From positions 64,001 to 128,000 of the forward strand of contig BTVV01000002.1 in the NCBI GenBank assembly GCA_045863855.1: 64,000 bases of DNA, read 5' to 3'. Under the pieces are notes generated by a model. That model ran no database searches. It was not told the origin of the DNA and saw only the letters and a program-made list of their open reading frames with translations. How positions within the stretch are numbered: position 1 is the stretch's first letter; the number at the start of each line of letters is the position of its first letter. Below, in pieces: positions 46,668 to 62,191 of this stretch. Origin of the DNA: Planctomycetota bacterium. Its GTDB lineage: Bacteria; Planctomycetota; SZUA-567; H5-PLA8. The translations under genes were made by a program, and so were the position numbers.

Positions 46668-48284
46668 TTATCGAGCGGGCGCGGGTGAAGTCAACGGCAA
46701 TCCGTCACCGCCTTCGTTCCGTTTGGGCCGGTATACGCGCAGCGCCCCGTGTTGCGCTTCAAACTCGTAATGCTCGCGCATGACGTCGAGCATGGCGTCG
46801 CTAAAGCGCTGCCGATGCCAGGACGGATCTCCGAAGAGATCGAACTTCAGAACGATGCGGTCGTAGCGACGATTGCGCAATTCATCCAGAAACGGTCCTT
46901 GAATCCACAAGCCCTGTTCGGCCAATTGCGTCATCTCGAAGGGCTGGAAACGAAGTTCTTTCCCGGCCAACACGACCAGCGTAGTGTCTTCCGAGAGCAC
47001 GGCGCCCGGCGCGTCGCGCAGCGCTTTCAACACGAACGGATCCTGCTCTTCAAGGCGTCGTTGCAAGGCATGCTCCATTTCGGCGAGCAGTTTCAGGTGA
47101 TCGAAGCGCACGAACTGAACGGTAAGCAACAGGATGGCCCCGCACGCGCCCAGCACGGGGAACAGGCCCTTGCCCCATAACTCTTTTAGCGGCGGCGCCG
47201 CGGCGAGGAGATCGGCGAGCAGCAATCCGGTAAGGACGCCGCACACGCACAGGAACTCCAGTTGGTAGTTGATGAACGCTCCGGCTTTCCCAATCATCAA
47301 GGATGTCGCGAATGCCGTGAGGCCGTAGAGGCACCACAAGAGCCTCGGGTGCGGACGCTCCGCGTGAGGAGTTTGCATCCAGGAGGTGAACTGCCAAAGA
47401 CCGCCCAACCCACCCAGAACGACCAGGCGGCCGTGCTCTTCCATCAGCGATGCCAGCATGTGGCACGCCTGCGGCCAAGAGTAGTGATTGCGATTGGCCG
47501 TCACCAGGTGATTCCAGAAGCCGCCGTCCGTAAAAAGGGTTGCGAGGATCAGCAGGAGGAATCCCGCGCCGACGAATCCCGCCGTGAAGCGCAGGCCACG
47601 TCCCAGATTTTGCACGCAGGCCGCCGCGACGCACGCCGCGGGCGCCGCCAGCATCGACTGCTTGGTGAACAGCGCGGCAATGAGCAGTACGCCGACTGCG
47701 TAGGGGCCCCACGAACGCTCGAATGCTCGCGCGCTCACCACCACCGCGGCCAAGGAGCAAGCGACGGCCAGCGTGTCTACGCGCAGAAGCACGCCCCACA
47801 AGAAAGCGTAGGTGGGCGCGAGGACCGCGCCCCCCGCGGTCAATGCGAAGGCCAGCGCGGCGAGGTAATCGTCGCCGCTGCACGCGCCGCGGCGGCGCAG
47901 ATCCAGCGCATGTGCGCCCACGGCCCATGCGGCCAGCGCGGCCGATGCAAAGAGCGCAAGCACGCTGACCCAACGGCCCGCGGAAAGATAATCCCCCGTG
48001 AACCAGGCGGCGAAGCGCGTGGCGGCTCGGAACACGGGCGGATAGTTGGTGACCGTATGCGGAGGCTCGCGCCACGATTCGTAGAGGCCATGCCCGGCGT
48101 CAGCCGCGTGCAATTGCGCCAGAATCGGCCCTTCGCCGTAATCGAGTTCGTAAGGAAAGTGGGTTGCCGTCCAGGCCCAAAGCGCGAACTGCGCTCCCAG
48201 CCAGAAGCCCACGGCCACCGGCGGCGCCAGCGGAAGCCAGTTCCAGCGGCCCATCGGTTCAAGCGAATCCTGTTCCCGAATCAT
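46668..48284 (-). CDS. GT-C fold (PMT/ArnT-like) membrane glycosyltransferase
   Basis: First-loop 'DYGEG', 'YPPVF', 'GRWVS', 'RVD', 'ALFTKQS', about 11 TM; C-terminal 'FQPF.MTQL..QG.W'; ATGA-coupled to the upstream paralog. Confidence 0.78.
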   Translation of the reverse strand: MIREQDSLEPMGRWNWLPLAPPVAVGFWLGAQFALWAWTATHFPYELDYGEGPILAQLHAADAGHGLYESWREPPHTVTNYPPVFRAATRFAAWFTGDYLSAGRWVSVLALFASAALAAWAVGAHALDLRRRGACSGDDYLAALAFALTAGGAVLAPTYAFLWGVLLRVDTLAVACSLAAVVVSARAFERSWGPYAVGVLLIAALFTKQSMLAAPAACVAAACVQNLGRGLRFTAGFVGAGFLLLILATLFTDGGFWNHLVTANRNHYSWPQACHMLASLMEEHGRLVVLGGLGGLWQFTSWMQTPHAERPHPRLLWCLYGLTAFATSLMIGKAGAFINYQLEFLCVCGVLTGLLLADLLAAAPPLKELWGKGLFPVLGACGAILLLTVQFVRFDHLKLLAEMEHALQRRLEEQDPFVLKALRDAPGAVLSEDTTLVVLAGKELRFQPFEMTQLAEQGLWIQGPFLDELRNRRYDRIVLKFDLFGDPSWHRQRFSDAMLDVMREHYEFEAQHGALRVYRPKRNEGGDGLPLTSPAPAR

Positions 48285-49855
48285 GGTTTCTCGCGCGCCG
48301 CTTGCCGCGGCCGGTACAGGAAGAAGGCGCCGATGCGGCGCTCGAACGCATACGCGTTTCCCATGGACTCGAGCATCTCTTCCGTGAAACGTTCGCGGTA
48401 AAAGCCCGGGTCCTTGCCCAGTTCGAAGTTTAACGCGATCAGAGCGTACTTCCCGGACTTCAGCTCTTCTAGGAACGGGCGCTGATCCCAAGCGCCCTGC
48501 AGGCTCAATTGAGTCATAATGAACGGCTCGAATTCGAGCGGCCGGCCGGCCAGAACCAGGTACGTGCAGTCTTCGCAGATGACCGGGCCTTTCGTTTCAC
48601 GAATGGCCTTTATCATCATGGGACCGTGCACGCGCTCCTGGGAATCTTTGTAACGCGTCGCGCTGGCGATCCAAAGCGTATGATCGCCTCGCCCCAGACT
48701 CCAGGCCAGCAGCAGTGCGGCGCATACGCCTGCTACCGTTCGCCAGCCCGCTTCTTTGCGCGCGCAAGCGAGCAATCCGTCGGCGGCTAAAGCGCCTCCT
48801 AAAGCGATCGAGATGGCGAGCGCTTCGATGAAATAGTTGGGGTTGGATCCTACTTTTCCCACGCTGGCCGAAGCCAGCCAAGCAAATACGAAATAAAGCA
48901 GCGCGACCAGCCGCGCGTGGGGACGCGCGCCGCGCGGCGAGGTTGCATAAAGCCCGGCTTGGTGGAGCGCTCCGGCCAAGCCTAACAGGGCGAACCAGCG
49001 CTCGCTGACCAACGTTTCGGACCACATCGAAAAAATGCGCTCGACGAAAAATGCGTTGCGGTTTCCGGTGATAATATTCTCGAAAAATACGCGGCCGGTC
49101 AGCCACTCGCCCAAGCCGATCAGAGCCAGCCCGGAAACCCCCAGGGCGGCACAAAAGCACAGTCCTTCCTTCCAGGAGCGCAAGCACCACGCCAGGCCGA
49201 TCGCCAAGGGTGCGGCGATCATCGAATGTTTCGTGTACAGCGCGAGGAGCAGCAGCGGCAGCAGGAGCCACGCCCAGCGTCCTCGCGCGGCCAACATCGG
49301 GTATACCGCCACGGCCGCGAGCGAGAGCGCCCAGCCCATGGCGTCGGGGCGGTAGAGCATGCCCCAGTAAAAAATGGGCTCGGAACCCAGGACGCTTAAT
49401 CCTGCGGCGACGCAGGCGCCAGCGTGGAGTGCGCGCGAAGTACCGGCCGAGCTATCCGTGGTGAGGCGCCATACCAGCACGCTTGCGGCAGCGGCGGCCG
49501 CCAAGGTGCTTAGGGCGCTCAAAAGCCGGCCCCCGGCCAGCAGCGATCCCCAGGCTCGTCCCACGCCCCAAGCCGTCCAGAGATAAACCGGCGGGTATAC
49601 CGAAGCGCGGTACGGTGGCGTGGCCAGCGCGTCGTAATGGGGACCGCCCGAATCCAAGAGCGCCGTCTGCGCGAGAATGGTGCCTTCGCTGTAGTCGATG
49701 GCATAGTCGAAGCCGACGACCAGATCGGCCCATTGAACGAACTGCGCGCATCCGCGCAGGCTCAAGACCAGCATGGGCAGAAGCACCAGCCACGCAATCC
49801 AGGTGCGGCGCGCCGGGGGCTTCTCGGAAGGCGTAATTCCATTTGAGTCGGCCAT
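48281..49855 (-). CDS. GT-C fold (PMT/ArnT-like) membrane glycosyltransferase, paralog
   Basis: 'DYSEG', 'YPPVY', 'GRLLS', 'RPD', 'ALYTKHS', 'GKVGSNPNYF.E', 'FEPFIMTQL..QG.W'. Confidence 0.78.
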   Translation of the reverse strand: MADSNGITPSEKPPARRTWIAWLVLLPMLVLSLRGCAQFVQWADLVVGFDYAIDYSEGTILAQTALLDSGGPHYDALATPPYRASVYPPVYLWTAWGVGRAWGSLLAGGRLLSALSTLAAAAAASVLVWRLTTDSSAGTSRALHAGACVAAGLSVLGSEPIFYWGMLYRPDAMGWALSLAAVAVYPMLAARGRWAWLLLPLLLLALYTKHSMIAAPLAIGLAWCLRSWKEGLCFCAALGVSGLALIGLGEWLTGRVFFENIITGNRNAFFVERIFSMWSETLVSERWFALLGLAGALHQAGLYATSPRGARPHARLVALLYFVFAWLASASVGKVGSNPNYFIEALAISIALGGALAADGLLACARKEAGWRTVAGVCAALLLAWSLGRGDHTLWIASATRYKDSQERVHGPMMIKAIRETKGPVICEDCTYLVLAGRPLEFEPFIMTQLSLQGAWDQRPFLEELKSGKYALIALNFELGKDPGFYRERFTEEMLESMGNAYAFERRIGAFFLYRPRQAAREKP

Positions 49856-49906
49856 GAGCCCAACAGGATAGTATGGGCGCTCGATTCGCACCAGACCGGG
49901 GCATGC

Positions 49907-51814
49907 TTAAGGATTGCGGTCGCGTTCGATGCGCGGAATCAGCTCACCGGCGTCCGGTCTGGTATCGTCCGTGCTCGATCGGCTTCGAAACTCGTCCATG
50001 CCGGGCGGTTCCGGAAACGCGCGCTCGGGGGACCATCCGGCCTGCCGCGCCTGTTGGTAAAGCGGTTCGTGGATGCGGTCGAAGACCATCCTTCGCACCT
50101 CGGCCGGCGAACGCTCCCAAAGCCTGGCCTTGAGCGGAATCGGCACCGCACCGGGCGGGCTGAGCATCGTCTGCACGAAGCCATCGGCGACCAGGTTGAC
50201 GAAGGGAGGCAGGACCAGCGCGCCGCGCGCCGTCAGGCGTCCGGCGGTGAATTCGCGCATGTAATGGTCGTAGATACGGTCCTTGGCCAGGCGCAGAAAG
50301 CGCTGCGCCGTTTCGGACTGCCCTTCCGCCCAGCCTTCGAGAATCGCGCGCTGAATCAACATGGCCAGCGTGGAGCGGACGTGCTCGATCACGTCTTGCC
50401 CGCGCGTGAGTTGGCGCACGACGAAATCCTCTAGCGGTAACGCGTAGGCGCCGCGCGCCTGCGCTCCGTACGTGCGGCGCAGTTTCTCGTAATAGCCTTC
50501 GGCGGCGGCCGGTCCCGAAAGAAGATACGCTTGCGGTACGGCCCATTCGAGAAATCCGCGATGCGAGGCCGCGAAATCGGCCGCGCTGTAAAAGCCCGTG
50601 TTCTTTCGTGCGCCCGCGTCCGTCAACGCTTTCTCGAAGGCATCGAAGAGCCGCGCGTCGGGGCTTTGACTGTAGTAGCCGTTGACCAGATCGAGATTCA
50701 CGCGGCCGCCGAAGGCGAGCATCTGCAGACTGTGCAGGATGAAGCGGTCGGCGGTAAGCATGTCGTAATCGTACGCGTGCTCCACGGCTTCGCCGGCCGC
50801 GATGCCGCGATCGGCCCAGTACAAGCTGTGCGCGGCCGGATGACGCCAGTCGAGCGGTCCGAATTTTTCCGTCAGCGCCGCCATGACGGACGGGTCCATG
50901 CGATAGTAGCGGCGCAGTTCCAGCGCGCGCCAGAAGGCCAGCGCCTTGGCCACGGTGCCGGCGTCACGGGATTCCGCGAACCACGAGTAGACCCGCTCGT
51001 CGACGGCGCGGCGTGCCGGATCGGCTTCCCGCGCCAGTGCGGCCTTGATGCCGCGTTCGCCGAAGCGCCGGAATTCCAGCGCGCGTCCGATGCGCCGCAC
51101 GCCTTCCGCGTGCTCCGGCAGTCCCAACGCCCACCACGATTTCAGCACTTCTGCCGCGGCGGGGCTTTGGAGAACCAGGGATTCGAAATCCCCTGGAGCG
51201 TCCGACAGCGCGCGCATCGCCGCAAGCGCTCTGGACTGCCCGCCTTCCGGAGGCGCGCCCAACAACTCGTGCCACTCCGATGCGAACTGCCGCTTGTAGT
51301 ACCAGTGCGAACCGACGGCGAACTTGCCGAGCTTGTGGAAATAGATCATCGAAAGTTCGTGATAGAGTCGAATCTCGTGCGGATTGGCGGGAATGCCCTT
51401 GTCGCGAAGCAGGCGGATGCCGTTCTGCACCCACAGCCACTTCTCTTCGTCGGTCTGCACCGCATCGGAGATGTTGTAGGCCATGTTCCAGGCCTGGAAG
51501 GCCCAGACCGAAGGAAAGCGGGGCTGCAGATCGGTGATCCAGCCGGCCAGTTCCATCGCTTCGTAGAAGCGGCCTTCATCCTGCATGCGTCCGGCACGCA
51601 GCCAGAGGTAATCGACCGCGAGCCCGCGAAAACTCCCCAACGCAGCCTGGGTGATCGCGATCTGCGGGGGCAACTCTTTGAGCCGTTCGGGATCGAGCGT
51701 CATCTGCAGCGCTTCGCGCCGCGCGTCGATGGCCGGCATGGTTTGCGCCGCGCCCAGCCAAGCCGCGGCGGCAAGACCCAGCGCCGTCAGGATCGCTCCG
51801 CGCTCCGAACTCAT
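49907..51814 (-). CDS. Membrane-anchored helical (TPR-like) ABC-associated protein, PilG-like N-terminal region
   Basis: N-terminal anchor; 'LGSFRGLAVDYLWLRA', 'ITDLQPRF..VW..QAWNMAYNIS', 'GI.LLR..GIP.NP'; ATGA overlap with the permease. Confidence 0.7.
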   Translation of the reverse strand: MSSERGAILTALGLAAAAWLGAAQTMPAIDARREALQMTLDPERLKELPPQIAITQAALGSFRGLAVDYLWLRAGRMQDEGRFYEAMELAGWITDLQPRFPSVWAFQAWNMAYNISDAVQTDEEKWLWVQNGIRLLRDKGIPANPHEIRLYHELSMIYFHKLGKFAVGSHWYYKRQFASEWHELLGAPPEGGQSRALAAMRALSDAPGDFESLVLQSPAAAEVLKSWWALGLPEHAEGVRRIGRALEFRRFGERGIKAALAREADPARRAVDERVYSWFAESRDAGTVAKALAFWRALELRRYYRMDPSVMAALTEKFGPLDWRHPAAHSLYWADRGIAAGEAVEHAYDYDMLTADRFILHSLQMLAFGGRVNLDLVNGYYSQSPDARLFDAFEKALTDAGARKNTGFYSAADFAASHRGFLEWAVPQAYLLSGPAAAEGYYEKLRRTYGAQARGAYALPLEDFVVRQLTRGQDVIEHVRSTLAMLIQRAILEGWAEGQSETAQRFLRLAKDRIYDHYMREFTAGRLTARGALVLPPFVNLVADGFVQTMLSPPGAVPIPLKARLWERSPAEVRRMVFDRIHEPLYQQARQAGWSPERAFPEPPGMDEFRSRSSTDDTRPDAGELIPRIERDRNP

Positions 51815-53385
51815 GACGCGCCCCGCGCCACTTCGCGCTTGCGGAAGATCAGCCAGGCGGTCACACCCGTCGCGCCTGTCCAGGCCAGTCCGATCCACCC
51901 TGCGCAGGCCCATACTTCGCCGCCTTCAACCAGCCGGCCGCTGACCACGGCATCGACGGGTGCGAAGCGGCTGAACTGCTTCAATACGGCCGCCAAGGCG
52001 CCGACGACGACCTTCAGGACCGCCGCCAGCAGTTTGGCGGCCTCGCCGGGCGTATTCTCGCCGAAGAATTCCAGCGCCTCGCCCAGGTATCCGCTCGAAC
52101 TTGCGAAGACTAAAACCATCAACGCCAGCAGGCTTGCGACGGGAAATCCGAGGAACGTGGCCGCACAAAGCCCCAGCGCGCCCAGGAAGATCAGTTTGAC
52201 CCACTGCATCGCCAGTGCGCGCGCCAGGTTTCCTTCGAAGCTCCCCGCCGCATAAAGCACTTCCAGTCCTTCACCGGGCAGAAACGTGGCGGTCGTATCG
52301 AAGGTCTGTTGCGGTGCAAGCGGGTTTTCGTGAACGATGGTGAGTTCCAGCCGCCCATCGGGGCCGATCTCCTCGAGCGGTACGGGCAGCACGAGGTACG
52401 CGTTCACCGGCATGCGAATGCCGCGTTCGCGCCCGTTGAACGCGATGCGCATCAGCAATTCCAAGTTGGGCGGCGCGCCGGATGTGCGCATCCGCATGCG
52501 CAACTGCACAGCCGCGCGGTCTCGTACCGCCTGCTCCAGTCCGGTGAAGATAAACGTGCGGCGCTGGTGCGGCGAAAGGTTGTGCGCGTTCAGTTCCACC
52601 TGATGCCGAACCTGGCGTTCGAATGCGGCGCGTCCCGTTTCGGCGACGAAGGCCGGATCGTTCGCCTCAACTTCTCGGATGCGCCGGCGAACTTCCTCCT
52701 CCAGGCCCGCGGACGCTTCCGGGGCCAGCGCCTTCCGCGCGGCGAGCACATCTTCCGCGACCGCCCGCGCGTCCTCCACATCGAGCGCCGGCTGCGTGGC
52801 CAGCAAGCGCGTGAAGCCCCAGATCGCCAGTCCCGCGACGCAAAGCAGCAGTGCATTAAGCAGCGCCAGTCCGATCCCCTTGCCCAGCAAGTACGCGCCG
52901 CGCGAAAGCGGCTTGCTCAGTACTGTATAGATGCGTTTGTCTTCAATTTCGTGGCAGACCGTCCCGCACGCCAGGAAAATGGTCATGAAGCTCAGCAATA
53001 GACCGGTCGCGCCGAGGGTGTAACTCAAAAAAGTTTGGATCCGGTAGCGCAGCGGCGAGCCCGGATCGAGCGTCAGCGGAAGCGTGACGAGCAACAGCAG
53101 CAACACGCAGACGAAGACGACGGCCACCCGCATGCGCAGCGCTTCGTCGAGAAACGTGCGCGCCACGCCCAGCGGCGCCCAGGCGTACGAGAGCAGTCCG
53201 CGCACCAGCGCCAGCCCGGCGAAGAACGTCCACGTCGCGGCGGTTGCACCCAAAATGGCCACGCCGGCGCCCGCGCGCCACGGCGCCCATCCCGTGGCCG
53301 CCCACACGATCGCGCCCGCGACGCCCAATCCGGCAAGCGTCAGAATCGCCGCCCAACCCCAGCGGCCTGCGGCGCTGTGGGGCAT
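51811..53385 (-). CDS. ABC-2-type permease with a large extracytoplasmic domain
   Basis: 'EIEDKRIYTVLSKPLSRGAYLLGKGIG'; multiple TM; start at MPHSAA, 2 nt after the ATPase stop. Confidence 0.85.
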   Translation of the reverse strand: MPHSAAGRWGWAAILTLAGLGVAGAIVWAATGWAPWRAGAGVAILGATAATWTFFAGLALVRGLLSYAWAPLGVARTFLDEALRMRVAVVFVCVLLLLLVTLPLTLDPGSPLRYRIQTFLSYTLGATGLLLSFMTIFLACGTVCHEIEDKRIYTVLSKPLSRGAYLLGKGIGLALLNALLLCVAGLAIWGFTRLLATQPALDVEDARAVAEDVLAARKALAPEASAGLEEEVRRRIREVEANDPAFVAETGRAAFERQVRHQVELNAHNLSPHQRRTFIFTGLEQAVRDRAAVQLRMRMRTSGAPPNLELLMRIAFNGRERGIRMPVNAYLVLPVPLEEIGPDGRLELTIVHENPLAPQQTFDTTATFLPGEGLEVLYAAGSFEGNLARALAMQWVKLIFLGALGLCAATFLGFPVASLLALMVLVFASSSGYLGEALEFFGENTPGEAAKLLAAVLKVVVGALAAVLKQFSRFAPVDAVVSGRLVEGGEVWACAGWIGLAWTGATGVTAWLIFRKREVARGAS

Positions 53386-53387
53386 CT

Positions 53388-54644
53388 TCACGAGCGCCGA
53401 TCCTTGTCGAGCAAATCGTCGAGTACGCTGCGATCCACGCGAGCGGCATCGTTCAGCAGAGGTTGCGCGGGTTTGGCTGGCGCGGGAGGCTTGGGCTGGG
53501 GAGATTCCGACGCGGCGCCGGTAAGCAGTTCGTTCAATACCTGCCGGTCGGCCACCGGTGGGCTTGCCTGCGTTTCGGCAGCCGGCGCCGGCTCGGCCCT
53601 CGGCCGGGGCGCGGTTGATTGCGCGAGTTCCGTAAGCACCTCGCGGTCCACGCGCGTGCCCGTTAACGCCACGGAGGCCGGCGTGAGCACCGGCTCGGCC
53701 GCGGCAGCCGATTCCACTCCCGCTCCCAAAAATCCCGCCACGGGTCCGCCCGCACCGGCGCCATGCGTCGTCGCGCCTTCGGCGTGCGCCTGTTCGACCA
53801 GTTCCAAAAACAACGCTTCGAGCTTCTTTCGCGGCGCTTCGACGCGCCGAACTTTCGCGTGTCCCGTACCTTCGATCAGCGCCCGCACCGGCTCGACTTC
53901 CTCCGGCTTCAGACCTTCGGCCTCGAAGATCACCGCGTCGCGCTTGGCGAGCAGTTCGTCGACGGTGCCTTGCGCGCGCACGCGGCCGCCGTACAGCACC
54001 GTTACGCGGTCGCAGACGTCTTCGACATCGGCGAGCAGATGGCTGCACAGCAGCACGGTCTTTCCGCGTGCTTTCAGATGTAAAATCAAATCTTTAATCT
54101 GGCGCGTGCCGATCGGATCGAGCCCCGTCGTGGGCTCGTCGAGGATCAGCAACTCGGGATCGTTGATCAGCGCCTGCGCCAGTCCGATGCGCCGCTGCAT
54201 GCCCTTCGAGTATTCGCCGACGGGGCGATGCTGCACGGCTTCGAGGCCGACCATCTCCAGCAGCATGTCGATGCGCCGCTTCCGCTCGGATCGCTCCAAC
54301 TCGAACAGCCGCCCGTAGTACTCGAGCGTCTCGCGCGCATTGAGGAAGCGGTACAAGTAAGATTCTTCGGGCAGATACCCGATCTTCGCCTTGGCGCGGA
54401 CATCCGAAGGCAGCCGGCCGAAGACGCTGATTCGGCCGGACGTGGGATGCAGCAGTCCCAGGATCAACTTTATGGTGGTGGACTTGCCGGAACCGTTGGG
54501 CCCCAGCAACCCGAAGACTTCGTGCGCGCGTATCTCCAGGTCCAGGCCGTTCAGCGCCTTTACGCGCGGGCGCAGCCAGAAATCGCGGAAGACCTTGGTC
54601 AGGCCGCGGCATTCGACGAGCGCGGTGGGGGCGTCGTTGGACAT
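53388..54644 (-). CDS. ABC transporter ATP-binding protein with an extended repetitive C-terminal tail
   Basis: Walker A 'GPNGSGKST', signature 'YSKGM', Walker B 'LILDEP', H-loop 'CSHLL'. Confidence 0.97.
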   Translation of the reverse strand: MSNDAPTALVECRGLTKVFRDFWLRPRVKALNGLDLEIRAHEVFGLLGPNGSGKSTTIKLILGLLHPTSGRISVFGRLPSDVRAKAKIGYLPEESYLYRFLNARETLEYYGRLFELERSERKRRIDMLLEMVGLEAVQHRPVGEYSKGMQRRIGLAQALINDPELLILDEPTTGLDPIGTRQIKDLILHLKARGKTVLLCSHLLADVEDVCDRVTVLYGGRVRAQGTVDELLAKRDAVIFEAEGLKPEEVEPVRALIEGTGHAKVRRVEAPRKKLEALFLELVEQAHAEGATTHGAGAGGPVAGFLGAGVESAAAAEPVLTPASVALTGTRVDREVLTELAQSTAPRPRAEPAPAAETQASPPVADRQVLNELLTGAASESPQPKPPAPAKPAQPLLNDAARVDRSVLDDLLDKDRRS

Positions 54645-54649
54645 GGCGT

Positions 54650-56050
54650 TCAGCGCTTCGGCGGCGGCGCGGCCTCCTGCTGCTGTTCCAGGTAGCGCCG
54701 GCGTTCGCGCTCGGCGCGGATGCGCGGGTCGCGGTTCACTTCCAGATACAGTTCCTTCGTGCCGGACGGAAGGTAGAACGTCTCAACGTCTCCGGCCAGA
54801 ATCTCTTCCAGCGCGTCCTGCAAATGCCGGCTGCGGACAATGCGCGGATTCTGCAAGTACTGCGGCGCCAGCGCCTGGAACGTTTCGGCTTCCGCGCGGA
54901 CTTCCTGGACCTCGTTGCGCCGGTAGGTGCGCGCTTCTTCCATCAGGCGCGCGACGGTGCCGTACACGTCCGCGCCCAGTAACTGCTCGTCGAGGGCCGC
55001 TTCGGCTTCTCGCACTTGTGCTGAGATCTTCGCGCGCCGGGCGGTCTCGTAGAGCGCAATGGCGTCGAGCAGCTTCAGGTAGCGGTCGCCGGCCATATCG
55101 GTCAGCGTCTGGCTGCGGAATTTCGCGGCGGCCTCCAGCTTGTTGGCCTTCTCGCTCTCGGACGCGATCACGGCCTGAAAATCCTGCCGCAGCGCCAGCG
55201 GCGGCGTGGGATCGGCCAGCGCCACGTTGACGACGCGGATTCCCGTACCCATGCGGTCCAGCGCCGCTTGCACGACCGCGCGCAAATCTTCCTTGGCGAT
55301 CTGCCCCGCGCGGAATGCGTCGGCGCTGGTCCGTGCCGCCAGATGCACCGCGGCCTGCTCCGAAGCCGACCGAACCAGCTCCTCGGCGCGCTTCAGCATC
55401 CCCGGTCGACCGCCCGCGGTCCCGATCGCCGAAGCGAAGCGCACGGCCTCTTCGCGCGGCACCGCCCACGTCACGCTCCAATGCGCATGGAAAATGTTCC
55501 GGTCGCCCGTCAGCAGCGAGCCGTCCTGCCCCGGCACCAGCCCGCCCGTGGGAACTTTTAATTCTTCAAGCTTCTTGCCGTGGTCCTCGGGCTTCACCTC
55601 GAACCAGAACGCGCGATCCAAGTTCACGACCTGTTGCGTCGTCGGAACCGTGATGACTTCGTCGATCGGCTGCGGAAACGCGAAGTATGGCCCGCCGGCT
55701 TCGCGAACCGTACCGGCTTCGGTGGCCACCACACGGCCCAGCCGCAGCAGCACCGCGACTTCGCCTTCCTGGACGTAGAACCAGCCGCTTCCGAAGAAGG
55801 CGACCACCAGCAGCGCCATCACCCATTTCAGGAGCCCAAAGCTGACCTTCAGCGCATCCGAAAGCGAACGGTTGGCCGGATCGAGGTCTTTATCCGCATC
55901 CGGTCCTTCCGGCTCGGCGTGATGATGGTGATGATCGTGCCCGAAGATCGAGATCTTCTTGGGCTCGTGCCCGTGGCCGTGATCGTGCGCATGCCCATGG
56001 TCATGCCCGTGATCGTGCCCGTGCGTATGTTCGTGTTCGTGGCCGGCCAT
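54650..56050 (-). CDS. HflK-like SPFH protein with His-rich N-terminus
   Basis: 19 His in the first 44 aa, one TM, 'E.AVLLRLG', 'FPQPIDEV', 'LLTGDRNI', 'PP...DFQAVIA', coiled coil, 'Y..NP.I'. Confidence 0.88.
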   Translation of the reverse strand: MAGHEHEHTHGHDHGHDHGHAHDHGHGHEPKKISIFGHDHHHHHAEPEGPDADKDLDPANRSLSDALKVSFGLLKWVMALLVVAFFGSGWFYVQEGEVAVLLRLGRVVATEAGTVREAGGPYFAFPQPIDEVITVPTTQQVVNLDRAFWFEVKPEDHGKKLEELKVPTGGLVPGQDGSLLTGDRNIFHAHWSVTWAVPREEAVRFASAIGTAGGRPGMLKRAEELVRSASEQAAVHLAARTSADAFRAGQIAKEDLRAVVQAALDRMGTGIRVVNVALADPTPPLALRQDFQAVIASESEKANKLEAAAKFRSQTLTDMAGDRYLKLLDAIALYETARRAKISAQVREAEAALDEQLLGADVYGTVARLMEEARTYRRNEVQEVRAEAETFQALAPQYLQNPRIVRSRHLQDALEEILAGDVETFYLPSGTKELYLEVNRDPRIRAERERRRYLEQQQEAAPPPKR

Positions 56051-56066
56051 GCCGCGCTCCCGATTC

Positions 56067-56999
56067 CTACTTCTTCTCGCCCACGTCCGGCTTCGGCATG
56101 GGCCGCGCATCCGGCTTCAGCAGGTCGAAAGGCGCGGTTTCCATGTCGAGCAGGAAGGTGGTGTTCTGCTTCAGCGTCTTGCGCAGCGCTTCGATTTCGC
56201 GCAAAAAGATCGCGAAGTCCTCGCTCTTCTCGAAGACGTTGTAGTACTCGGCGGCCGCGGCGTCGCCTTCGGCGCGGATCGCTTCGGCGCGCCGGTCGGC
56301 GAACGCCTGGATGATCCGAGCCTGCGATTCGGCTTCGCTGCGAATCTTGCTCGCGATCGCGTCGCCGCTGCTGCGCGCGGTGCTCGCCATCCGCTCGCGC
56401 GTCTCGCGCATGCGCGTGAAGACCGTCTTCGAAACGTCCTCGGGCAGACCCAGCCGCTTCAAGCCCACCGTCTCGACCTGGATGCCGTAGCCCTGCGCGC
56501 CCAGTTCTTCCTGCAGCCGCGTCTTGATCTTCTCTTCGACCTCCGCCAGCTTGAGCTGCTGCGGATCGGTGCTCGTCAACTCGTCGAAACGGTACCGGCT
56601 CACGATCGCGTTCGCTTCGCGCAGGCGTGCTTCAAGCTGCTTCTGGCCGTCGGTTACGTTTCCCAGCGAGCGGAAGAAGGCCAGCGGGTCGCCGATCCGC
56701 CACGCCACGTAAGCGGTCACGATCAGCGTGTGATTGTCTCGTGTCGTCATTTGCTCCAGCCGCGTCTCGTGAAGCTGCACCCGCCGGTCGAAGACGCGCA
56801 CATCCTGGATCGGATAGGGCCACTTCCAATACAGGCCCGCGCCTTCGCCGTCGGCGTTCTTCACGGCGCCGTCGCCGGCTTTACCGAAGGTCGTCACCAC
56901 CGCGGCTTCGTTGAAGCGCACGGTGAACGAGACCATGTAGAGCAGCAGAACCAGCACCACGAGGATGCCGGCGGCCATCGAATGAAGGTGCTTCGGCAT
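56067..56999 (-). CDS. HflC-like SPFH protein
   Basis: One TM, 'E.AVVTTFG', 'GLYWKWPYPIQ.V..FD.R', 'WRI.DP..F', 'LP.....VF.RM...R', 'I.AEGD..AA..Y', 'F..FLR..E'. Confidence 0.92.
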   Translation of the reverse strand: MPKHLHSMAAGILVVLVLLLYMVSFTVRFNEAAVVTTFGKAGDGAVKNADGEGAGLYWKWPYPIQDVRVFDRRVQLHETRLEQMTTRDNHTLIVTAYVAWRIGDPLAFFRSLGNVTDGQKQLEARLREANAIVSRYRFDELTSTDPQQLKLAEVEEKIKTRLQEELGAQGYGIQVETVGLKRLGLPEDVSKTVFTRMRETRERMASTARSSGDAIASKIRSEAESQARIIQAFADRRAEAIRAEGDAAAAEYYNVFEKSEDFAIFLREIEALRKTLKQNTTFLLDMETAPFDLLKPDARPMPKPDVGEKK

Positions 57000-57006
57000 G
57001 GCGGAC

Positions 57007-59049
57007 TTACTCCTTGGACTGCAAGTTCACGGGCGCCAGTTCCGCGCCCTGGTCCTTCAGGTCGAAACGAACGGTCAGATTACGGCGGTCGGCCAGGAGC
57101 AGATACTTGCGCCGCTCGGCCAGCCCGTCGGCCAGCACTTCCAGGTATCGGCGCATGCGGTACAGCCGCGGCGCGCGAGCGTAAGCGAGCAATTCGCGCT
57201 CGAAGCGCTCGGCCTTGGCGCGCTCCGCGTTTTCGCGTTCGTGCCGGTAGGCCCGGGCCTCGGCGATTCGTTTCGAAGCTTCGCCGCCGGCCGACTGTAG
57301 CAGCGTTTCGATCTTCGCTTCCTGCGCCGCCAGCGCCGCGGCATCGCTCTGATCCTGGCGCAAGGCTTCGAGCCGTTCGATCTCCGCGCCGATCGTACGA
57401 GCCAGTTCGGGTGTGCCGGCCGCGGCGGCGAGTTGTCCGATTGCTTCGCGCAGCGCGACTTCGATCCGCGCTTCGCGTTCCTGGTGCGCTTGAACTACGC
57501 GGTGGAACGCTTCGGCAACTTCCTGCGGAGGATGGATACCGGCCATGCCCACGAAAACCACGTCCAGGCCCAGCCGTTCGCGGTCGGCCTCGGCTTGCAG
57601 AAGTTCGCGCAGCTTCGGGCCCAAGGCTGCGCGTTCGGGCCCCAACCAGGTGTCTTCGTCGCCGGCCAGAAGTACGCGCGCCGTCTCGCGCTCGGCCAGC
57701 GCCACCAGCGCCGCTTCCGGATCCTTCTGATGGCGCGAGTACGCCACCAGATCTTTGATCCGGTAATTGAGGAAGACTTCCGCCGCCAGCAGCGAGACCG
57801 AAGGAGCCTTGCCGCCGCCGGTTTCGCCGTCGCCTTGCGGCATCTGAATCAGCGCCCGCGGCGGAGCGACGAGCAGCAGTTCTTCGGCTTCCGCGTGCTG
57901 ATTATTCCAAAGGATCGGAGCCTGATCGTCCATCATATGCGCGTGCGAGCCCACGACGATCTGCCGGATGCGCGTCACGTCGTACAGTTCCGCGCGTTCC
58001 ACCGGCCAGGGCCATTTGAGATGCAGTCCCGGATCCAGCGGCTCGGAGCGGGACAGTTCCCCGAAGCGCAGCACGAGCGCCTGCTGCTGCGGTTCGACTT
58101 TCACCAGACACGAGAGCAGCAACAGCGCCGCGACGGCCACGCCGGTTAGCGGCGCCAGCCAGAGCGAGAGCAACTTCCAGAACCAGCTCCGCGTCACTTC
58201 GAAGCCGAACTGATAGTTCACCGCTTCTTGCAGCGCGCTGGCCAGGCTGCCGGGACTGGTCAGCAATCCCAGCAAACGGCTGTCGAACGCCGGCCGCGGT
58301 GTCTCGCCGGGCTTGCGCGGGCGATACAGGTTCAACACCAGCCCCGCCAGCATCTCCGCGCCCAGCAGGCCCTCCAGTACGCACAGGACAAAGGGCAGGT
58401 AATGCAGCAGCGCGTAGGATTCGAAGTGGACGAATGCCAGCGCCAGCGTCACGGCCGCCGAGACCAGCGCGGTGCCCATCAGGAAGCCCGCGCCGCCGCG
58501 CAACAGGATCCACTCGGCCTGCCGGGTCATCCCTGCCACATAGCGGCCGATCAGGAAGGTCGCGAATGCGATGCCCAGCGCGAAGGCCATGGGCAGAAGA
58601 GGGCGCGTCAGCCCGTGTGCGCTTTCGGCATGCGCGCTCAGCCAAGTCTCGGCCGCGCCCATCCGCCAGATCGCTCCTGCGAGCAGGAAGATTCCGGTGC
58701 ACAGGCCCGTCAGCGGCAGCCCGATGCGGCGAAGCTGTTCCAAACGCCGCTGCGCGACGTTCAATTCGGCCGCGGTCTCGCCGAAAAGCTGCGTGTCCGG
58801 CCCGGCCGAGGCAAGGCGTTCGGCCTCCAACGCTTCCATCCGCTCGAGCCGGTGTTGGTGATAAAGGAGCAGCAAGCATAGCCACACGGGGATGCCGCCG
58901 GCCGCGTACCAAGCCGCGGGCAAAAAGACGATCGGATCGCCGGCGAACGCGATCGCCGCCAGCCCCGCCGCCGCCGCCAGTTGCGCGCCCAAACCGAGCA
59001 ACGCGCCTGCTACCGCGCGCTGGTAACTTTGCGGAGTCAGCGCGCTCAT
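57007..59049 (-). CDS. HflK-like SPFH protein with a large multi-TM N-terminal domain
   Basis: About 7 N-terminal TM, 'YRPRKPGE..RPAFDSRLL', 'EAVNYQFGFEVTRSWF', then 'LRFG..PGLHLKWPWP', 'IHPPQEVA.AF..V..A', 'AP.LY..RRYL'; GGAGG RBS. Confidence 0.88.
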   Translation of the reverse strand: MSALTPQSYQRAVAGALLGLGAQLAAAAGLAAIAFAGDPIVFLPAAWYAAGGIPVWLCLLLLYHQHRLERMEALEAERLASAGPDTQLFGETAAELNVAQRRLEQLRRIGLPLTGLCTGIFLLAGAIWRMGAAETWLSAHAESAHGLTRPLLPMAFALGIAFATFLIGRYVAGMTRQAEWILLRGGAGFLMGTALVSAAVTLALAFVHFESYALLHYLPFVLCVLEGLLGAEMLAGLVLNLYRPRKPGETPRPAFDSRLLGLLTSPGSLASALQEAVNYQFGFEVTRSWFWKLLSLWLAPLTGVAVAALLLLSCLVKVEPQQQALVLRFGELSRSEPLDPGLHLKWPWPVERAELYDVTRIRQIVVGSHAHMMDDQAPILWNNQHAEAEELLLVAPPRALIQMPQGDGETGGGKAPSVSLLAAEVFLNYRIKDLVAYSRHQKDPEAALVALAERETARVLLAGDEDTWLGPERAALGPKLRELLQAEADRERLGLDVVFVGMAGIHPPQEVAEAFHRVVQAHQEREARIEVALREAIGQLAAAAGTPELARTIGAEIERLEALRQDQSDAAALAAQEAKIETLLQSAGGEASKRIAEARAYRHERENAERAKAERFERELLAYARAPRLYRMRRYLEVLADGLAERRKYLLLADRRNLTVRFDLKDQGAELAPVNLQSKE

Positions 59050-59110
59050 GCCGCCCTCCGTCTTGCCAGAAGTGGCGCTTTCCGGGCCAACCGCGGCGCC
59101 TGCTCGCGCG

Positions 59111-59116
59111 TATAAT
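59111..59116 (+). promoter_or_regulatory. Possible -10 element of the divergent permease gene
   Basis: Perfect TATAAT about 40 nt upstream of ATG 59157; no recognisable -35. Confidence 0.35.
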
Positions 59117-59156
59117 CGGCAGCCGTTCGATTCGTCTGCGCCCACGGGATGCCGGC

Positions 59157-60131
59157 ATGCCGAGCCGACTCTGGACAATCGCCGCCAATACGTACTGCGA
59201 ATCGATCCGCCAGCCGGTCTTCGTCGTGCTGCTTTGCGGCGCCAGCCTGCTCCTGATGCTTAACATCGCCGTCTGCGGCTACGCCTTCGAGGACGACAAC
59301 AAACTGCTCCTGGACCTGGGCCTCAGCACGATCTTCCTGGGCGGACTGCTGCTCGCGGCCTTCACCGCGACGGGTGTCTTCAGCCGCGAGATCGAGAACA
59401 AGACCGTACTGACCGTGATCAGCAAGCCCGTCGGACGTCCGCTCTTCGTGGCCGGCAAGTTTCTGGGCGTCGCCGCCGCGCTGGCCACGGCGTGCTGGGT
59501 CTGGACCCTTTTGTTCATGCTTACCGTTCGCCACGGCGTCATGACCCGCGCCAACGATCCCTTCGACGAGCCCGTGCTGCTTTTCGGCCTCGGCGGTTTT
59601 GCGCTCGCGGGGTTGCTCGCCGCCTCGGCCAATTACGCGTACCGCTGGGTCTTCGCTTCCACCTTTACCGGAGCGCTGGTCGTCATCGAATCGATCGCTT
59701 ACATCCTGGTGCTCTGCCTTGGCAAAGGTTTTGTCATTCAGCCGCCCGAGACCGATTTCGATCCGCGCCTTTGGCTGGCCGCGCTGCTGGTCTTCGAGGC
59801 TCTGGCTGTGCTCTGCGCCGTAGCTATCGCCGTTTCCACGCGGTTGGGTCAGGTCATGACCCTGGCGATCTGCTCGGCGGTCTTCCTGCTGGGCTTGAGC
59901 AGCGACTTCTTGTTCCGCGCGCGCGCCGAAGAGAACGCGCTCGCCAAGATCGCCTACTCGCTCGTGCCGAATTTGAACTTCCATTGGCTGGCCGAACTGC
60001 TGCATCGCGAACACACCCACCTGGATGAACTCTGGCCCTTGCTGGGGCTTGTCAGCGCCTACAGCGCGCTCCACGTGGCCGCGATTCTGGCGCTGGCCGT
60101 GGCGTTCTTTCAGACCCGCGAGGTCGGATAG
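59157..60131 (+). CDS. ABC-2-type permease (PilI-like)
   Basis: 'IAANTYCESIRQP', 'REIENKTVLTVISKPVGRPLFVAGKFLG', 'PNL', C-terminal 'F..RE'. Confidence 0.88.
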   Translation: MPSRLWTIAANTYCESIRQPVFVVLLCGASLLLMLNIAVCGYAFEDDNKLLLDLGLSTIFLGGLLLAAFTATGVFSREIENKTVLTVISKPVGRPLFVAGKFLGVAAALATACWVWTLLFMLTVRHGVMTRANDPFDEPVLLFGLGGFALAGLLAASANYAYRWVFASTFTGALVVIESIAYILVLCLGKGFVIQPPETDFDPRLWLAALLVFEALAVLCAVAIAVSTRLGQVMTLAICSAVFLLGLSSDFLFRARAEENALAKIAYSLVPNLNFHWLAELLHREHTHLDELWPLLGLVSAYSALHVAAILALAVAFFQTREVG

Positions 60132-60187
60132 TTCCGCGCCGCCGTTCGTTCTCGTGTGCTTCAAACCATTCACGTTCGTCTGTCCAT

Positions 60188-62191
60188 TCATGCCGCATGC
60201 GCCGCGTGCACGCGCGCCGGTTCCGCCAGCGGCGCTTCCGCCGGACCGTCCAGGTCTTCGCCTTCGCGCACCAGCCGGGCGGAATTGAAGATCACGATCG
60301 CTTCCGCGCCCGCGTGCAGCAACGCCGCGAGCGCCGGCGGCAGGCCGCCCGCCGCGCTGACCGCCAGCAGCGATACGATGAACAGCCCGCCGAAGATCAA
60401 GTTCTGCCGCACCACGGTCGTGGCGCGCTTGGAGAGCCGAATGAGGAACGGAATGCGGTTGAGGTTCTCGTTCATCAGCGCGATCGAGGCCGAATGAATC
60501 GCCACGTCGCTGCCGGCCGCGCCCATGGCGATGGAAATGTGGCCGGCCGCCAGTGCCGGAGCGTCGTTCACGCCGTCGCCCACCACCGCCACTAAATGCC
60601 CGCGCTTTTTGATCCCTTCCACGATTTCCAGCTTCTCGCCGGGCAGCACTTCGGCCTTGAGGTCCGTGCAGTGCATCTCGGCCGCGACGCGCCGTGCGAC
60701 GCTGACACGGTCGCCCGTTACCATCACGAGCTGCGGGACGCCCAGCGCGCGCAGCTCGTCCAGCGCCGGAGCGGCCGACGGTCGCGTCTTGTCTTCCATG
60801 CCGATCCAGCCCAACACCCGCGCGCCGCGCGAGACATGCAGCAGGCTCAAGCCTTCGGCTTCCGCGCCGGGCGCTTCACCCAGGTCGAGGCCGCGTTCGG
60901 CCAGCCAGGTCGCGCGTCCGACGCACAAGTCTTCGCCGTCCAACACCGCCAGGACGCCGTGCCCGGAGACTTCCTCGAAGCGTTCGGGCTCCCGGATCGG
61001 TATCCGCGCGCGCTGGGCGACTTCCAGGACCGCCTTGGCCACCGGGTGCTTGCTGTGCTGTTCCGCGATCGCCGCCGCCGCCAGCAGTTCCGCCGCGTCC
61101 ACCCCCGGCGCGGGGCGCAGCTTGGTGACCGAAAGCGTTCCCGTGGTCAGCGTGCCGGTCTTGTCGAAGATGATGGCCGTCAGGTTGCGCGCGACTTCCA
61201 GATCGCTGGCCTTCTTGATCAGAATCCCCAGCCGCGCGGCGGCCGAAAGCGCCGCGACCATCGCCGTCGGCACCGCCAGGATCAGCGCGCACGGCGTCGC
61301 GATCACCAGCATCGAGATCGCACGGTTCAGATCTTTGGTGAAGAAGAGAACGATCCCCGCCAGCATCAGGACCGTCGGCGTGTACCAGCGAGCGTAGCGG
61401 TCCATCAGCCGCGCGATCGGCGTGCGCGTCCGTTCGGCCTGCAGAATGAGCTGCTGCACCTGGCCCAGCGTCGTGTCTTCGCCGGCCTTCGTGATCTTGA
61501 CCTCCAGCGTGCCGGTTAAGTTGATCGTGCCGCCGAAGACCTCCGCCCCCTGGCTCTTGTCCACGGGGATCGATTCGCCCGTGATCGTGGCTTGATTGAC
61601 CGTGCTGAACCCGGTGAGCACGACGCCGTCGCCGGGGATATTGTCGCCGGGCCGCACGCGAACTACGTCGCCGGCGCGCAAATCCTTCGCCTCGATCTCC
61701 TGCTCGCCTTCGGGTCCGACCTTGAACGCCCGCGTCGGCGTGACGCGAATCAGGCTCTCGATGGCCGCCCGCGCGCCCAGCGCCGTGCGGCTCTCGATCA
61801 GCTCGGCCAGGATCATGAAAAATGCGATCGCGCCGGCGGTGAGGTATTCGCCCATGGCGAATGCCGCGAGGAAGGCCAGCGCCACCAGCTCCGTCATGTG
61901 CGTGTGGCCGGTGCGTAGATCTTTCCAAGCGTTCGCGACGATCGGCGCGCCCAGCAAAGCCGCCGCAAGGAAGGCCAGCGCATCGGAGTAGAAATTCCGG
62001 ACCACGTGCGGCTCGGCGAAATCCGGATGGATTCCTACCGTGCCCGAGGGTTCGCCCGTCGCAGCCGCAAAGAGGTACCGCGCCGCGAGGCTCGCGACCA
62101 GCAGCACCCCGCCCAGCAACGTGACCACGATCTCCAGGCTGGCCTGCCCGGAATCGGCGGTGATCTGATCCTTCAAGTTCGAATGGGCCAT
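60188..62191 (-). CDS. P1B-type heavy-metal-translocating ATPase lacking an N-terminal metal-binding domain
   Basis: 'TGES', TM4 'ATPCAL', phosphorylation site 'DKTGT', 'SKHP', 'MVTGD', 'GDGVNDAPAL'. Confidence 0.95.
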   Translation of the reverse strand: MAHSNLKDQITADSGQASLEIVVTLLGGVLLVASLAARYLFAAATGEPSGTVGIHPDFAEPHVVRNFYSDALAFLAAALLGAPIVANAWKDLRTGHTHMTELVALAFLAAFAMGEYLTAGAIAFFMILAELIESRTALGARAAIESLIRVTPTRAFKVGPEGEQEIEAKDLRAGDVVRVRPGDNIPGDGVVLTGFSTVNQATITGESIPVDKSQGAEVFGGTINLTGTLEVKITKAGEDTTLGQVQQLILQAERTRTPIARLMDRYARWYTPTVLMLAGIVLFFTKDLNRAISMLVIATPCALILAVPTAMVAALSAAARLGILIKKASDLEVARNLTAIIFDKTGTLTTGTLSVTKLRPAPGVDAAELLAAAAIAEQHSKHPVAKAVLEVAQRARIPIREPERFEEVSGHGVLAVLDGEDLCVGRATWLAERGLDLGEAPGAEAEGLSLLHVSRGARVLGWIGMEDKTRPSAAPALDELRALGVPQLVMVTGDRVSVARRVAAEMHCTDLKAEVLPGEKLEIVEGIKKRGHLVAVVGDGVNDAPALAAGHISIAMGAAGSDVAIHSASIALMNENLNRIPFLIRLSKRATTVVRQNLIFGGLFIVSLLAVSAAGGLPPALAALLHAGAEAIVIFNSARLVREGEDLDGPAEAPLAEPARVHAAHAA

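Follow-up and report, generated by a model that had tools for sequence, protein, structure and literature searches.

Analysis of a 64,000-nt window from a planctomycete genome (contig BTVV01000002.1 of GCA_045863855.1, positions 64,001 to 128,000; all coordinates below are positions in this window) revealed a block of eight genes at 49907..62191, in which three adjacent SPFH genes of the HflK/HflC type stand with a P1B-type metal ATPase and an ABC (ATP-binding cassette) transporter module. The best reading of our results is that the trio encodes an HflK/HflC-type cage that is independent of FtsH and holds metal transporters; we put the probability of this reading at roughly 55%. Taken separately, it is probable that the cage serves metal transport, and the chance that the ABC module is functionally tied to it is slightly better than even. 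The evidence comes from the co-occurrence of the trio with one clade of P1B ATPases and with the ABC module across the phylum, from a cation diffusion facilitator (CDF)/ZnT fold in the first cage subunit, and from relatives in which a metal transporter is fused to an HflK-type protein.

Co-occurrence was surveyed in an even sample of 151 genomes of the Planctomycetota, which was searched with three alignments, the fetched regions being mapped by local profiles. Subunit 1 of the window type was found in 35 of the 151 genomes (G088 was left out, its protein being an intact CDF fusion), and 34 of these hold a P1B ATPase of the same clade as the window's, defined by a score of at least 690 bits or a split at a contig end (G098); the next genome scored 627. 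Likewise, subunit 1 is present in 34 of the 35 genomes with the clade P1B ATPase, the exception being an assembly of 1340 contigs. The P1B gene adjoins the trio in 28 of the 35 genomes and the ABC module in 25 (both partners in 20, P1B only in 8, ABC only in 5, and neither in 2); in five further genomes the trio occurs with ABC-module genes while the pump is encoded elsewhere. The 25 genomes with ABC linkage come from 14 families and show at least six gene orders. Among 30 relatives examined, the block recurs in the same arrangement in G001, G002, G004, G007, and G012, and in G009 up to the contig end, in other genera; in G023, permease A, the trio, P1B, ABC, permease B, and the helical protein all lie on one strand. 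That the block is found both in this layout in other genera and in at least six arrangements over the phylum indicates that the linkage is more than chance. Metagenomes gave 80 loci encoding the long helical protein, and the 25 of these with at least 6.5 kb of upstream sequence contain SPFH genes in 24 cases and a P1B gene in 19. With the proteobacterial loci described below, the neighborhood survey proposed in the earlier note on this DNA thus found the co-occurrence conserved. The named records nearest to the block are from Planctomycetota, and a genome-collection scan with the P1B protein returned 8 loci. In the 2.6-Mb genome G020, subunit 1, the pump, and the helical protein were located on three contigs (L028, L081, and L140) with no partner adjoining.

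Seven genes of the block are on the minus strand, and one, encoding permease A, is on the plus strand:

60188..62191, minus strand: P1B ATPase, 667 aa, without an N-terminal metal-binding domain; TPC in M4 and His in M6; falls in the trio-linked clade of the pump tree
59157..60131, plus strand: ABC-2 permease A, in opposite orientation to the other genes of the block (ABC2_membrane_2, E 1.1e-6)
59050..59156, no strand: divergent intergenic region of 107 nt between permease A and cage subunit 1
57007..59049, minus strand: cage subunit 1, HflK type, with a six-helix CDF-like domain, anchor helix, SPFH domain, and coiled coil
58303..59040, minus strand: CDF/ZnT-fold membrane domain of subunit 1 (residues ~4 to 249), with none of the four site A metal ligands
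56067..56999, minus strand: cage subunit 2, HflC type, with a single membrane anchor
54650..56050, minus strand: cage subunit 3, HflK type, with a His-rich N-terminal tail preceding the anchor helix
53388..54644, minus strand: ABC ATPase with intact Walker A and B motifs, signature, and H-loop, and a Pro/Ala-rich C-terminal tail
51811..53391, minus strand: ABC-2 permease B, with a long hydrophilic insert separating its membrane helices
49907..51814, minus strand: helical protein, 635 aa, all-helical with a hydrophobic N-terminal helix, no Pfam family, and weak TPR/HAT-like fold matches

The minus-strand genes from the trio to the helical protein are separated by gaps of 7, 16, and 5 nt, followed by two overlaps of 4 nt each; with the ATG at 53385 as the start codon, the ABC ATPase and permease B genes would instead be 2 nt apart. 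Coordinates, gaps, and Band_7 matches bear out the earlier note's description of three adjacent SPFH genes running into an ABC ATPase, a permease, and a helical protein. The second permease and the P1B ATPase that it placed at the flank are also present, but the plus-strand orientation of that permease had been missed. Permease A sits between the P1B gene and the trio, convergent with the former and divergent from the latter, which rules out a common transcript for pump and trio here and places the pump outside the trio operon. Relatives with other gene orders have permease A at the head of the operon. Ahead of the permease A gene and on the same strand, a motif AAC-N16/18-CGTA(G/T), which we take to resemble an extracytoplasmic function (ECF) sigma promoter, occurs in the window (59050-59156) and in L021, L023, L025, L026, L044, and L045; genome-wide, the AAC/CGTA motif with 16/17 spacing was counted 186 times versus 144 to 155 times for shifted spacers, a mild enrichment. 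In G001 (L021), subunit 1, subunit 3, and permease B each contain a frameshift, possibly an assembly error. Four metatranscriptome assemblies from two studies have contigs that are mostly 90 to 99% alike across the block; as these show neither strand nor level, they are not evidence of its expression.

Each of the three Band_7 proteins contains a membrane anchor, an SPFH domain, and a C-terminal coiled coil, and their best matches among solved structures are E. coli HflK and HflC. The canonical unit has two genes, whereas the window has three. Subunit 1 is HflK-like with seven predicted membrane helices, subunit 2 passes the NCBIfam hflC model TIGR01932 (137 bits; cut-off, 134.4), and both K-type subunits score under the hflK cut-off (102 and 72 versus 159.4 bits). 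Subunit 3 has 19 His within its first 50 residues, a tail that, going by the topology of HflK, would be cytoplasmic. In a quick tree, subunit 3 sequences form one clade (Shimodaira-Hasegawa-like approximate likelihood ratio test [SH-aLRT], 99) and subunit 1 sequences a weaker one (86), and stand-alone K and stand-alone C sequences form clades of their own (100 each), apart from the trio subunits; neither this tree nor that of the pumps has bootstrap values, and we claim no direction of transfer. The ftsH gene is absent from loci L001 to L137 except L034, its own locus. The window likewise holds neither ftsH nor hflX, as the earlier note had observed; in this genome they are on contigs C59 and C5, respectively, neither of which is the window's contig, although proteins of unlinked genes may still bind each other. 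A search of the genome (93.9% complete) for a separate canonical hflKC pair, which that note had also proposed, found none: the four Band_7 genes are the trio and one encoding a 708-aa protein unlike HflK/C.

That the trio is the sole HflK/C-type set in a genome that also encodes FtsH, with E. coli HflK/HflC as its best structural matches, fits an alternative in which the trio, as a divergent modulator of FtsH, governs the turnover of metal transporters, the fused or neighboring transporters being substrates or sensors. The report that hflKC is not always found beside hflX (PMC13086221) is compatible with this idea. However, the K-type subunits fall under the hflK cut-off and group apart from stand-alone pairs; G163 and G147, as well as Pseudomonas aeruginosa (PMC13086221), hold the trio plus a separate hflK/hflC pair; and permanent fusion to a whole pump would suit a resident client rather than a substrate. 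We regard modulation of FtsH as the least probable of the alternatives weighed here.

The structure model of subunit 1 (predicted local distance difference test [pLDDT], 83; one intact CDF fusion, L072, was among the 38 rows of the input alignment) shows six membrane helices and a cytoplasmic linker, followed by the anchor helix, SPFH domain, and coiled coil. In a comparison with 48,161 solved chains, residues 4 to 249 matched SLC30A10 best (Z 14.7; root mean square deviation, 3.2; 181 residues aligned) and ZnT3 second (Z 14.2; deviation, 3.9; 201 aligned), followed by the unrelated EspB (Z 10.6) and by ZnT1, ZnT8, and ZnT4 (Z 9.7 to 9.8). Since helical bundles may reach a Z of ~13 by chance, the match was checked further with an Atlas model and a profile comparison, both free of the L072 row. 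The Atlas model matched a CDF cluster with a template modeling score of 0.65 across 207 residues. Profiles of 37 subunit 1 rows and of 25 ABC-linked rows matched 44 intact CDF-HflK fusions with probabilities of 94.0% (E 1.4e-7) and 95.3% (E 2.3e-8), respectively, and controls (reversed, permease, and SO_0444) gave 0.06 to 0.3%; at a loose E of 10, the profile matched 101 of 120 fusion-family proteins and none of 120 controls. The intact fusions keep the site A ligands H/D/H/D (44, 43, 44, and 39 of 44, with His at the fourth position in the other 5). The corresponding residues of the window protein, in helices 2 and 5, are Y48, G52, F189, and T193, none of them a ligand; among 37 subunit 1 sequences, 25 have no site A ligand and 12 have one. 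Sequence and model comparisons thus show that the six-helix domain, which the earlier note had missed, has a CDF/ZnT fold whose metal site has been lost. The fold and profile homology are shared with CDF/ZnT transporters (SLC30A10, PDB 9kvx; ZnT3, PDB 9jj1) and with the intact fusions; unlike those transporters, subunit 1 has neither the site A ligands nor the C-terminal CDF dimer domain.

Fused relatives point in the same direction. Three unrelated types of metal transporter each precede a fused HflK-type domain: P1B ATPases (L135, L136, L137, and L076), CDF proteins (L032, L133, and L072), and SO_0444/ArsP proteins (L123, L129, and L131). Fusions of the CDF-HflK kind were found in several phyla. 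The gene order at these loci is fusion, HflC, plain HflK, with HflC following each fusion; the second HflK-type gene was typed by NCBIfam in seven of nine cases and by local profiles in the other two. L032 also encodes a CadA-like pump. This order suggests a reason for the presence of three genes, namely, that only some K positions of the ring can bear a large membrane domain.

The P1B ATPase of the window passes TIGR01525 (534 bits; cut-off, 346) and carries the DKTGT, TGES, HP, and GDGxND motifs. In the pump tree, the trio-linked P1B ATPases cluster together (44 rows; SH-aLRT, 95), separate from CadA- and CopA-like pumps. Their group divides into ABC-linked and trio-only parts, the latter including two Burkholderiaceae pumps. 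The M4 motif is CPC in 55 of 70 distinct clade members (the rest are CPT, VPA, TPC, and five single variants), and the M6 His is present in 64 of the 70. The P1B-2 (ZntA/CadA) pattern, CPC with an M5 Lys and an M6 Asp, does not describe the window pump, which has TPC and the M6 His and lacks the M5 Lys. The clade motifs fit neither the ZntA nor the CopA pattern and so do not point to a particular metal. A complex prediction for the pump (residues 12 to 648) with subunit 1 (residues 1 to 330) scored 0.01 and was used neither way. Four clade pumps from one genus (L108 to L111) have VPA in M4 and Gln in M6, sit on a long branch, and are encoded far from the trio; they are possibly no longer metal pumps. 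Among the matches listed, close relatives of the trio-linked pump were also scattered through Enterobacterales (Citrobacter, Raoultella, Kluyvera, Kosakonia, and some Salmonella enterica).

The second partner, which we call module A, comprises the ABC ATPase, the permeases, and the anchored helical protein. The helical protein was modeled as all-helical (pLDDT, 79) with weak TPR/HAT-like matches, none of them at an E of 0.001 or better in the fold search; Atlas and homolog searches found only unnamed proteins. Its family occurs in 108 of the 151 genomes, and 18 of 20 loci fetched away from the trio contain the ABC ATPase, permease B, and the helical protein alone. Such independence is in keeping with a scenario in which the cage serves the metal pump only, as in the proteobacterial four-gene kit, and module A is a passenger whose linkage was inherited after a single insertion of the kit, with permease A on one side and the ATPase gene on the other. 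The trio and P1B occur without module A in eight sampled genomes and at four annotated plasmid loci, and the ABC-linked pumps are largely one subclade, so that a single event could explain the link. On the other hand, the link is retained in 14 families despite at least six different gene orders and holds even where the P1B gene has been relocated, and the linked ATPases carry an extra tail, which together make a passenger unlikely. This low-complexity tail of ~100 residues with short leucine motifs, which in the window is Pro/Ala-rich and has three short DRxVLxxL-like repeats, was found at 26 of 30 trio-linked genome loci versus 1 of 19 others, the one being a contig-split joint cluster. The tail may be a sign of coadaptation to the trio and may also reflect one ancestral gain. 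At L150 (G000:C14 29960-31245), another ABC ATPase gene stands with a permease A-like gene but without cage genes, and trio-free module A or helical-protein genes often lie near genes for H+-pyrophosphatase (L085, L086, L091, and L097), rsfS (L086, L088, and L102), or riboflavin kinase (L095 and L098).

The trio also stays with module A in 10 genomes whose P1B gene is elsewhere, and the metal ligands are relaxed in the P1B clade. Both observations would fit a cage that mainly organizes the ABC machine, as a PilGHI- or GldAFG-like transporter for envelope or pilus biogenesis, with the P1B ATPase an accessory supplier of metal or a pump of changed substrate. In "Candidatus Manganitrophus" (L106), module A is part of a type IV pilus cluster, with a prepilin gene on one side and pilZ/pilM on the other. 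We nevertheless hold this reading to be quite improbable, given that the clade P1B ATPase is kept in 34 of 35 trio genomes with largely retained CPC and M6 His, and that just 1 of 25 metagenome loci, one without the trio, had a prepilin motif next to it. In Planctomycetota, the neighbors of module A are mostly housekeeping genes; a DUF1559 pilin stood beside 1 of 13 trio-free helical-protein loci whose neighbors were scanned, and a metagenome scan with the Manganitrophus helical protein gave no matches. The NCBIfam Gld cut-offs were missed (GldA, 193 versus 402.6 bits; GldF, 21.6 versus 288.5). Module A may be homologous in sequence to the PilGHI proteins of Myxococcus xanthus. An ATPase, an ABC-2 permease, and an anchored partner are common to module A, M. 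xanthus PilG/PilH/PilI, which are required for pili (PMC3724824), and Flavobacterium GldA/F/G, but module A differs in having two unlike permeases, the cage link, and, in Planctomycetota, no steady pilin neighbor.

The trio and one P1B clade (together module M: HflK type, HflC, HflK type, and pump) also occur in Proteobacteria. Plasmids or chromids of Burkholderia ubonensis, Paraburkholderia, Rhizobium, and Klebsiella aerogenes carry them without module A; the Paraburkholderia locus adjoins a zinc ABC importer and a CobW-family GTPase. At trio-P1B loci more generally, the zinc context includes a CobW-family GTPase at L065 and L105, and a zinc ABC importer at L105; an S14 gene flanks L068. The gene order of module M matches that of P. 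aeruginosa PA2439-PA2438-PA2437-(PA2436)-hmtA (PA2435), with three SPFH genes and a P1B ATPase, and the two may be orthologous. The P. aeruginosa locus differs in that it has no ABC module and its pump is cotranscribed, whereas the window pump lies behind an inverted permease. Proteobacterial plasmid loci of hmtA-type order fall in the window's subunit 3 clade, and the two Burkholderiaceae pumps tested fall in its P1B clade; in a search via a gammaproteobacterial pump relative, no P. aeruginosa protein was among the 120 matches listed.

Published data on P. aeruginosa connect this gene order to zinc. Zinc depletion in a znuA mutant induced PA2434-PA2439, including PA2437-PA2439 and hmtA, 5.6- to 14.4-fold (PMC4542158), PA2437-PA2439/hmtA proteins also rise under zinc depletion (PMC11761036), and Zur binds (shifts) the PA2439 promoter (10.1101/2021.05.28.446167). 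HmtA has been described from overexpression data as a Zn/Cu importer, with reviews asking for confirmation (PMC8456098, PMC10393844). In PA14, deletion of a three-SPFH operon, probably the hmtA-linked genes (paFlo5-7) given that it is the single operon of this kind, reduced biofilm by ~20% and slightly attenuated virulence; the trio was read as FtsH interactors or of unknown role, and the accessible account of the triple deletion contains no metal assay that we could find (PMC13086221). These reports make the earlier note's statement that no functional characterization exists too strong. That note had also proposed that the cage organizes the P1B pump and/or the ABC complex so as to couple metal export to loading or export of an extracytoplasmic product. 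The organizing role fits the co-occurrence, the lack of a nearby ftsH, and the fusions. Export is not the favored direction, because the same-order P. aeruginosa locus is induced by zinc starvation and HmtA is described as an importer, and no evidence supports coupling to export of a product.

From the anatomy, conservation, CDF fold, site loss, and fusions described above, we infer how the parts may assemble, which clients and metal are involved, and what module A may do. As in the E. coli cage of 24 alternating subunits (PMC12048511), the three SPFH proteins would assemble into a single periplasmic cage of alternating HflC and HflK-type subunits, the latter of two kinds, one bearing a bulky membrane domain and the other filling the remaining positions. 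Its clients would be transporters rather than FtsH, fused to a cage subunit in some relatives; in the window, the CDF fold without a metal site would probably serve as a docking post, and transport of the metal, most likely Zn or Cu, would fall to the separate P1B ATPase. As the pump has no metal-binding domain of its own, the optional His tail of subunit 3 may supply it with metal, or buffer metal, from the cytoplasmic side. In many Planctomycetota, module A would have become a second fixed partner. The system would most likely serve to acquire metal, or to deliver it into a confined periplasmic space, rather than to detoxify in bulk. A further extension is possible but doubtful: the cages of this family may act as metal chambers in the periplasm, into which different transporters (P1B, CDF, or SO_0444) fit as interchangeable cartridges, and in which here a transport-dead CDF domain docks a free P1B ATPase and an ABC machine, so that pumped metal is passed to or from the ABC cargo apart from the bulk periplasm.

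Several observations weigh against a metal transporter-holding cage independent of FtsH, beyond the trio being the genome's only HflK/C-type set. The intact fused transporters belong to efflux families, opposite in direction to import by HmtA, and hmtA mRNA is not zinc-repressed (10.1101/2021.05.28.446167). No conserved Zur-like palindrome was found in 26 upstream regions (9 of P1B and 17 of subunit 1 genes). The window pump reads TPC, and 15 of 70 clade members depart from CPC; four of the pumps in the 10 genomes that keep the trio with module A and encode P1B elsewhere have VPA in its place. The His tail is found in 11 of 33 readable subunit 3 sequences, and among proteobacterial subunit 1 proteins, two gave a weak CDF signal (37 and 20 bits) and two others gave no match. 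Because the sampled genomes are kin, they do not count as independent cases, and some of the sequences behind the P1B profile were themselves trio-linked pumps.

Downstream of the helical gene, beginning 15 nt past it, are two paralogous multi-helix membrane proteins (48281-49891 and 46668-48491; 35% identical, no Pfam match) that presumably resemble lipid-linked glycosyltransferases. They were rejected as members of the system because, of the flanks compared, none but those of this block and of G002 contained them.

The mycobacterial protein PacL is not known to belong to the SPFH family. In the mycobacterial PacL-CtpC "effluxosomes," a membrane scaffold with a metal-binding motif organizes P1B ATPases, much as we propose for the cage, in a role reported as efflux (10.1101/2021.10.01.462712, PMC13043812). 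The human stomatin cage, which encloses aquaporin-1 and UT-B (PMC12407830), is likewise an SPFH cage with transporter clients (those of the window being proposed from genes), but it is eukaryotic and cytoplasm-facing, has one subunit type, and holds nonmetal clients. The E. coli HflK/HflC-FtsH complex (PDB 7vhp, 7wi3, and 9cz2) shares with the window proteins the SPFH domain, anchor helix, coiled coil, and K and C types; the window differs in its three subunit types, CDF-fold domain, His tail, transporter neighbors, and lack of ftsH/hflX linkage. The available text of a survey of prokaryotic SPFH operons makes no mention of ATPases (PMC2636767), and our literature search, with subscription journals and supplements mostly outside its scope, found no account of a transporter-bearing HflK/C cage or its CDF domain. 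The core module has a partly studied counterpart in P. aeruginosa.

Our results bear on FtsH-independent roles of bacterial SPFH cages, in a family whose clients appear to be written into the genes, either as fusions or as a disabled fold with a free pump. For P. aeruginosa, they suggest a testable explanation of why an SPFH trio accompanies hmtA, and they may account for HmtA behaving unlike other P1B pumps, since it was characterized by overexpression of the pump gene. In Planctomycetota, the ABC link points to a widespread envelope machine.

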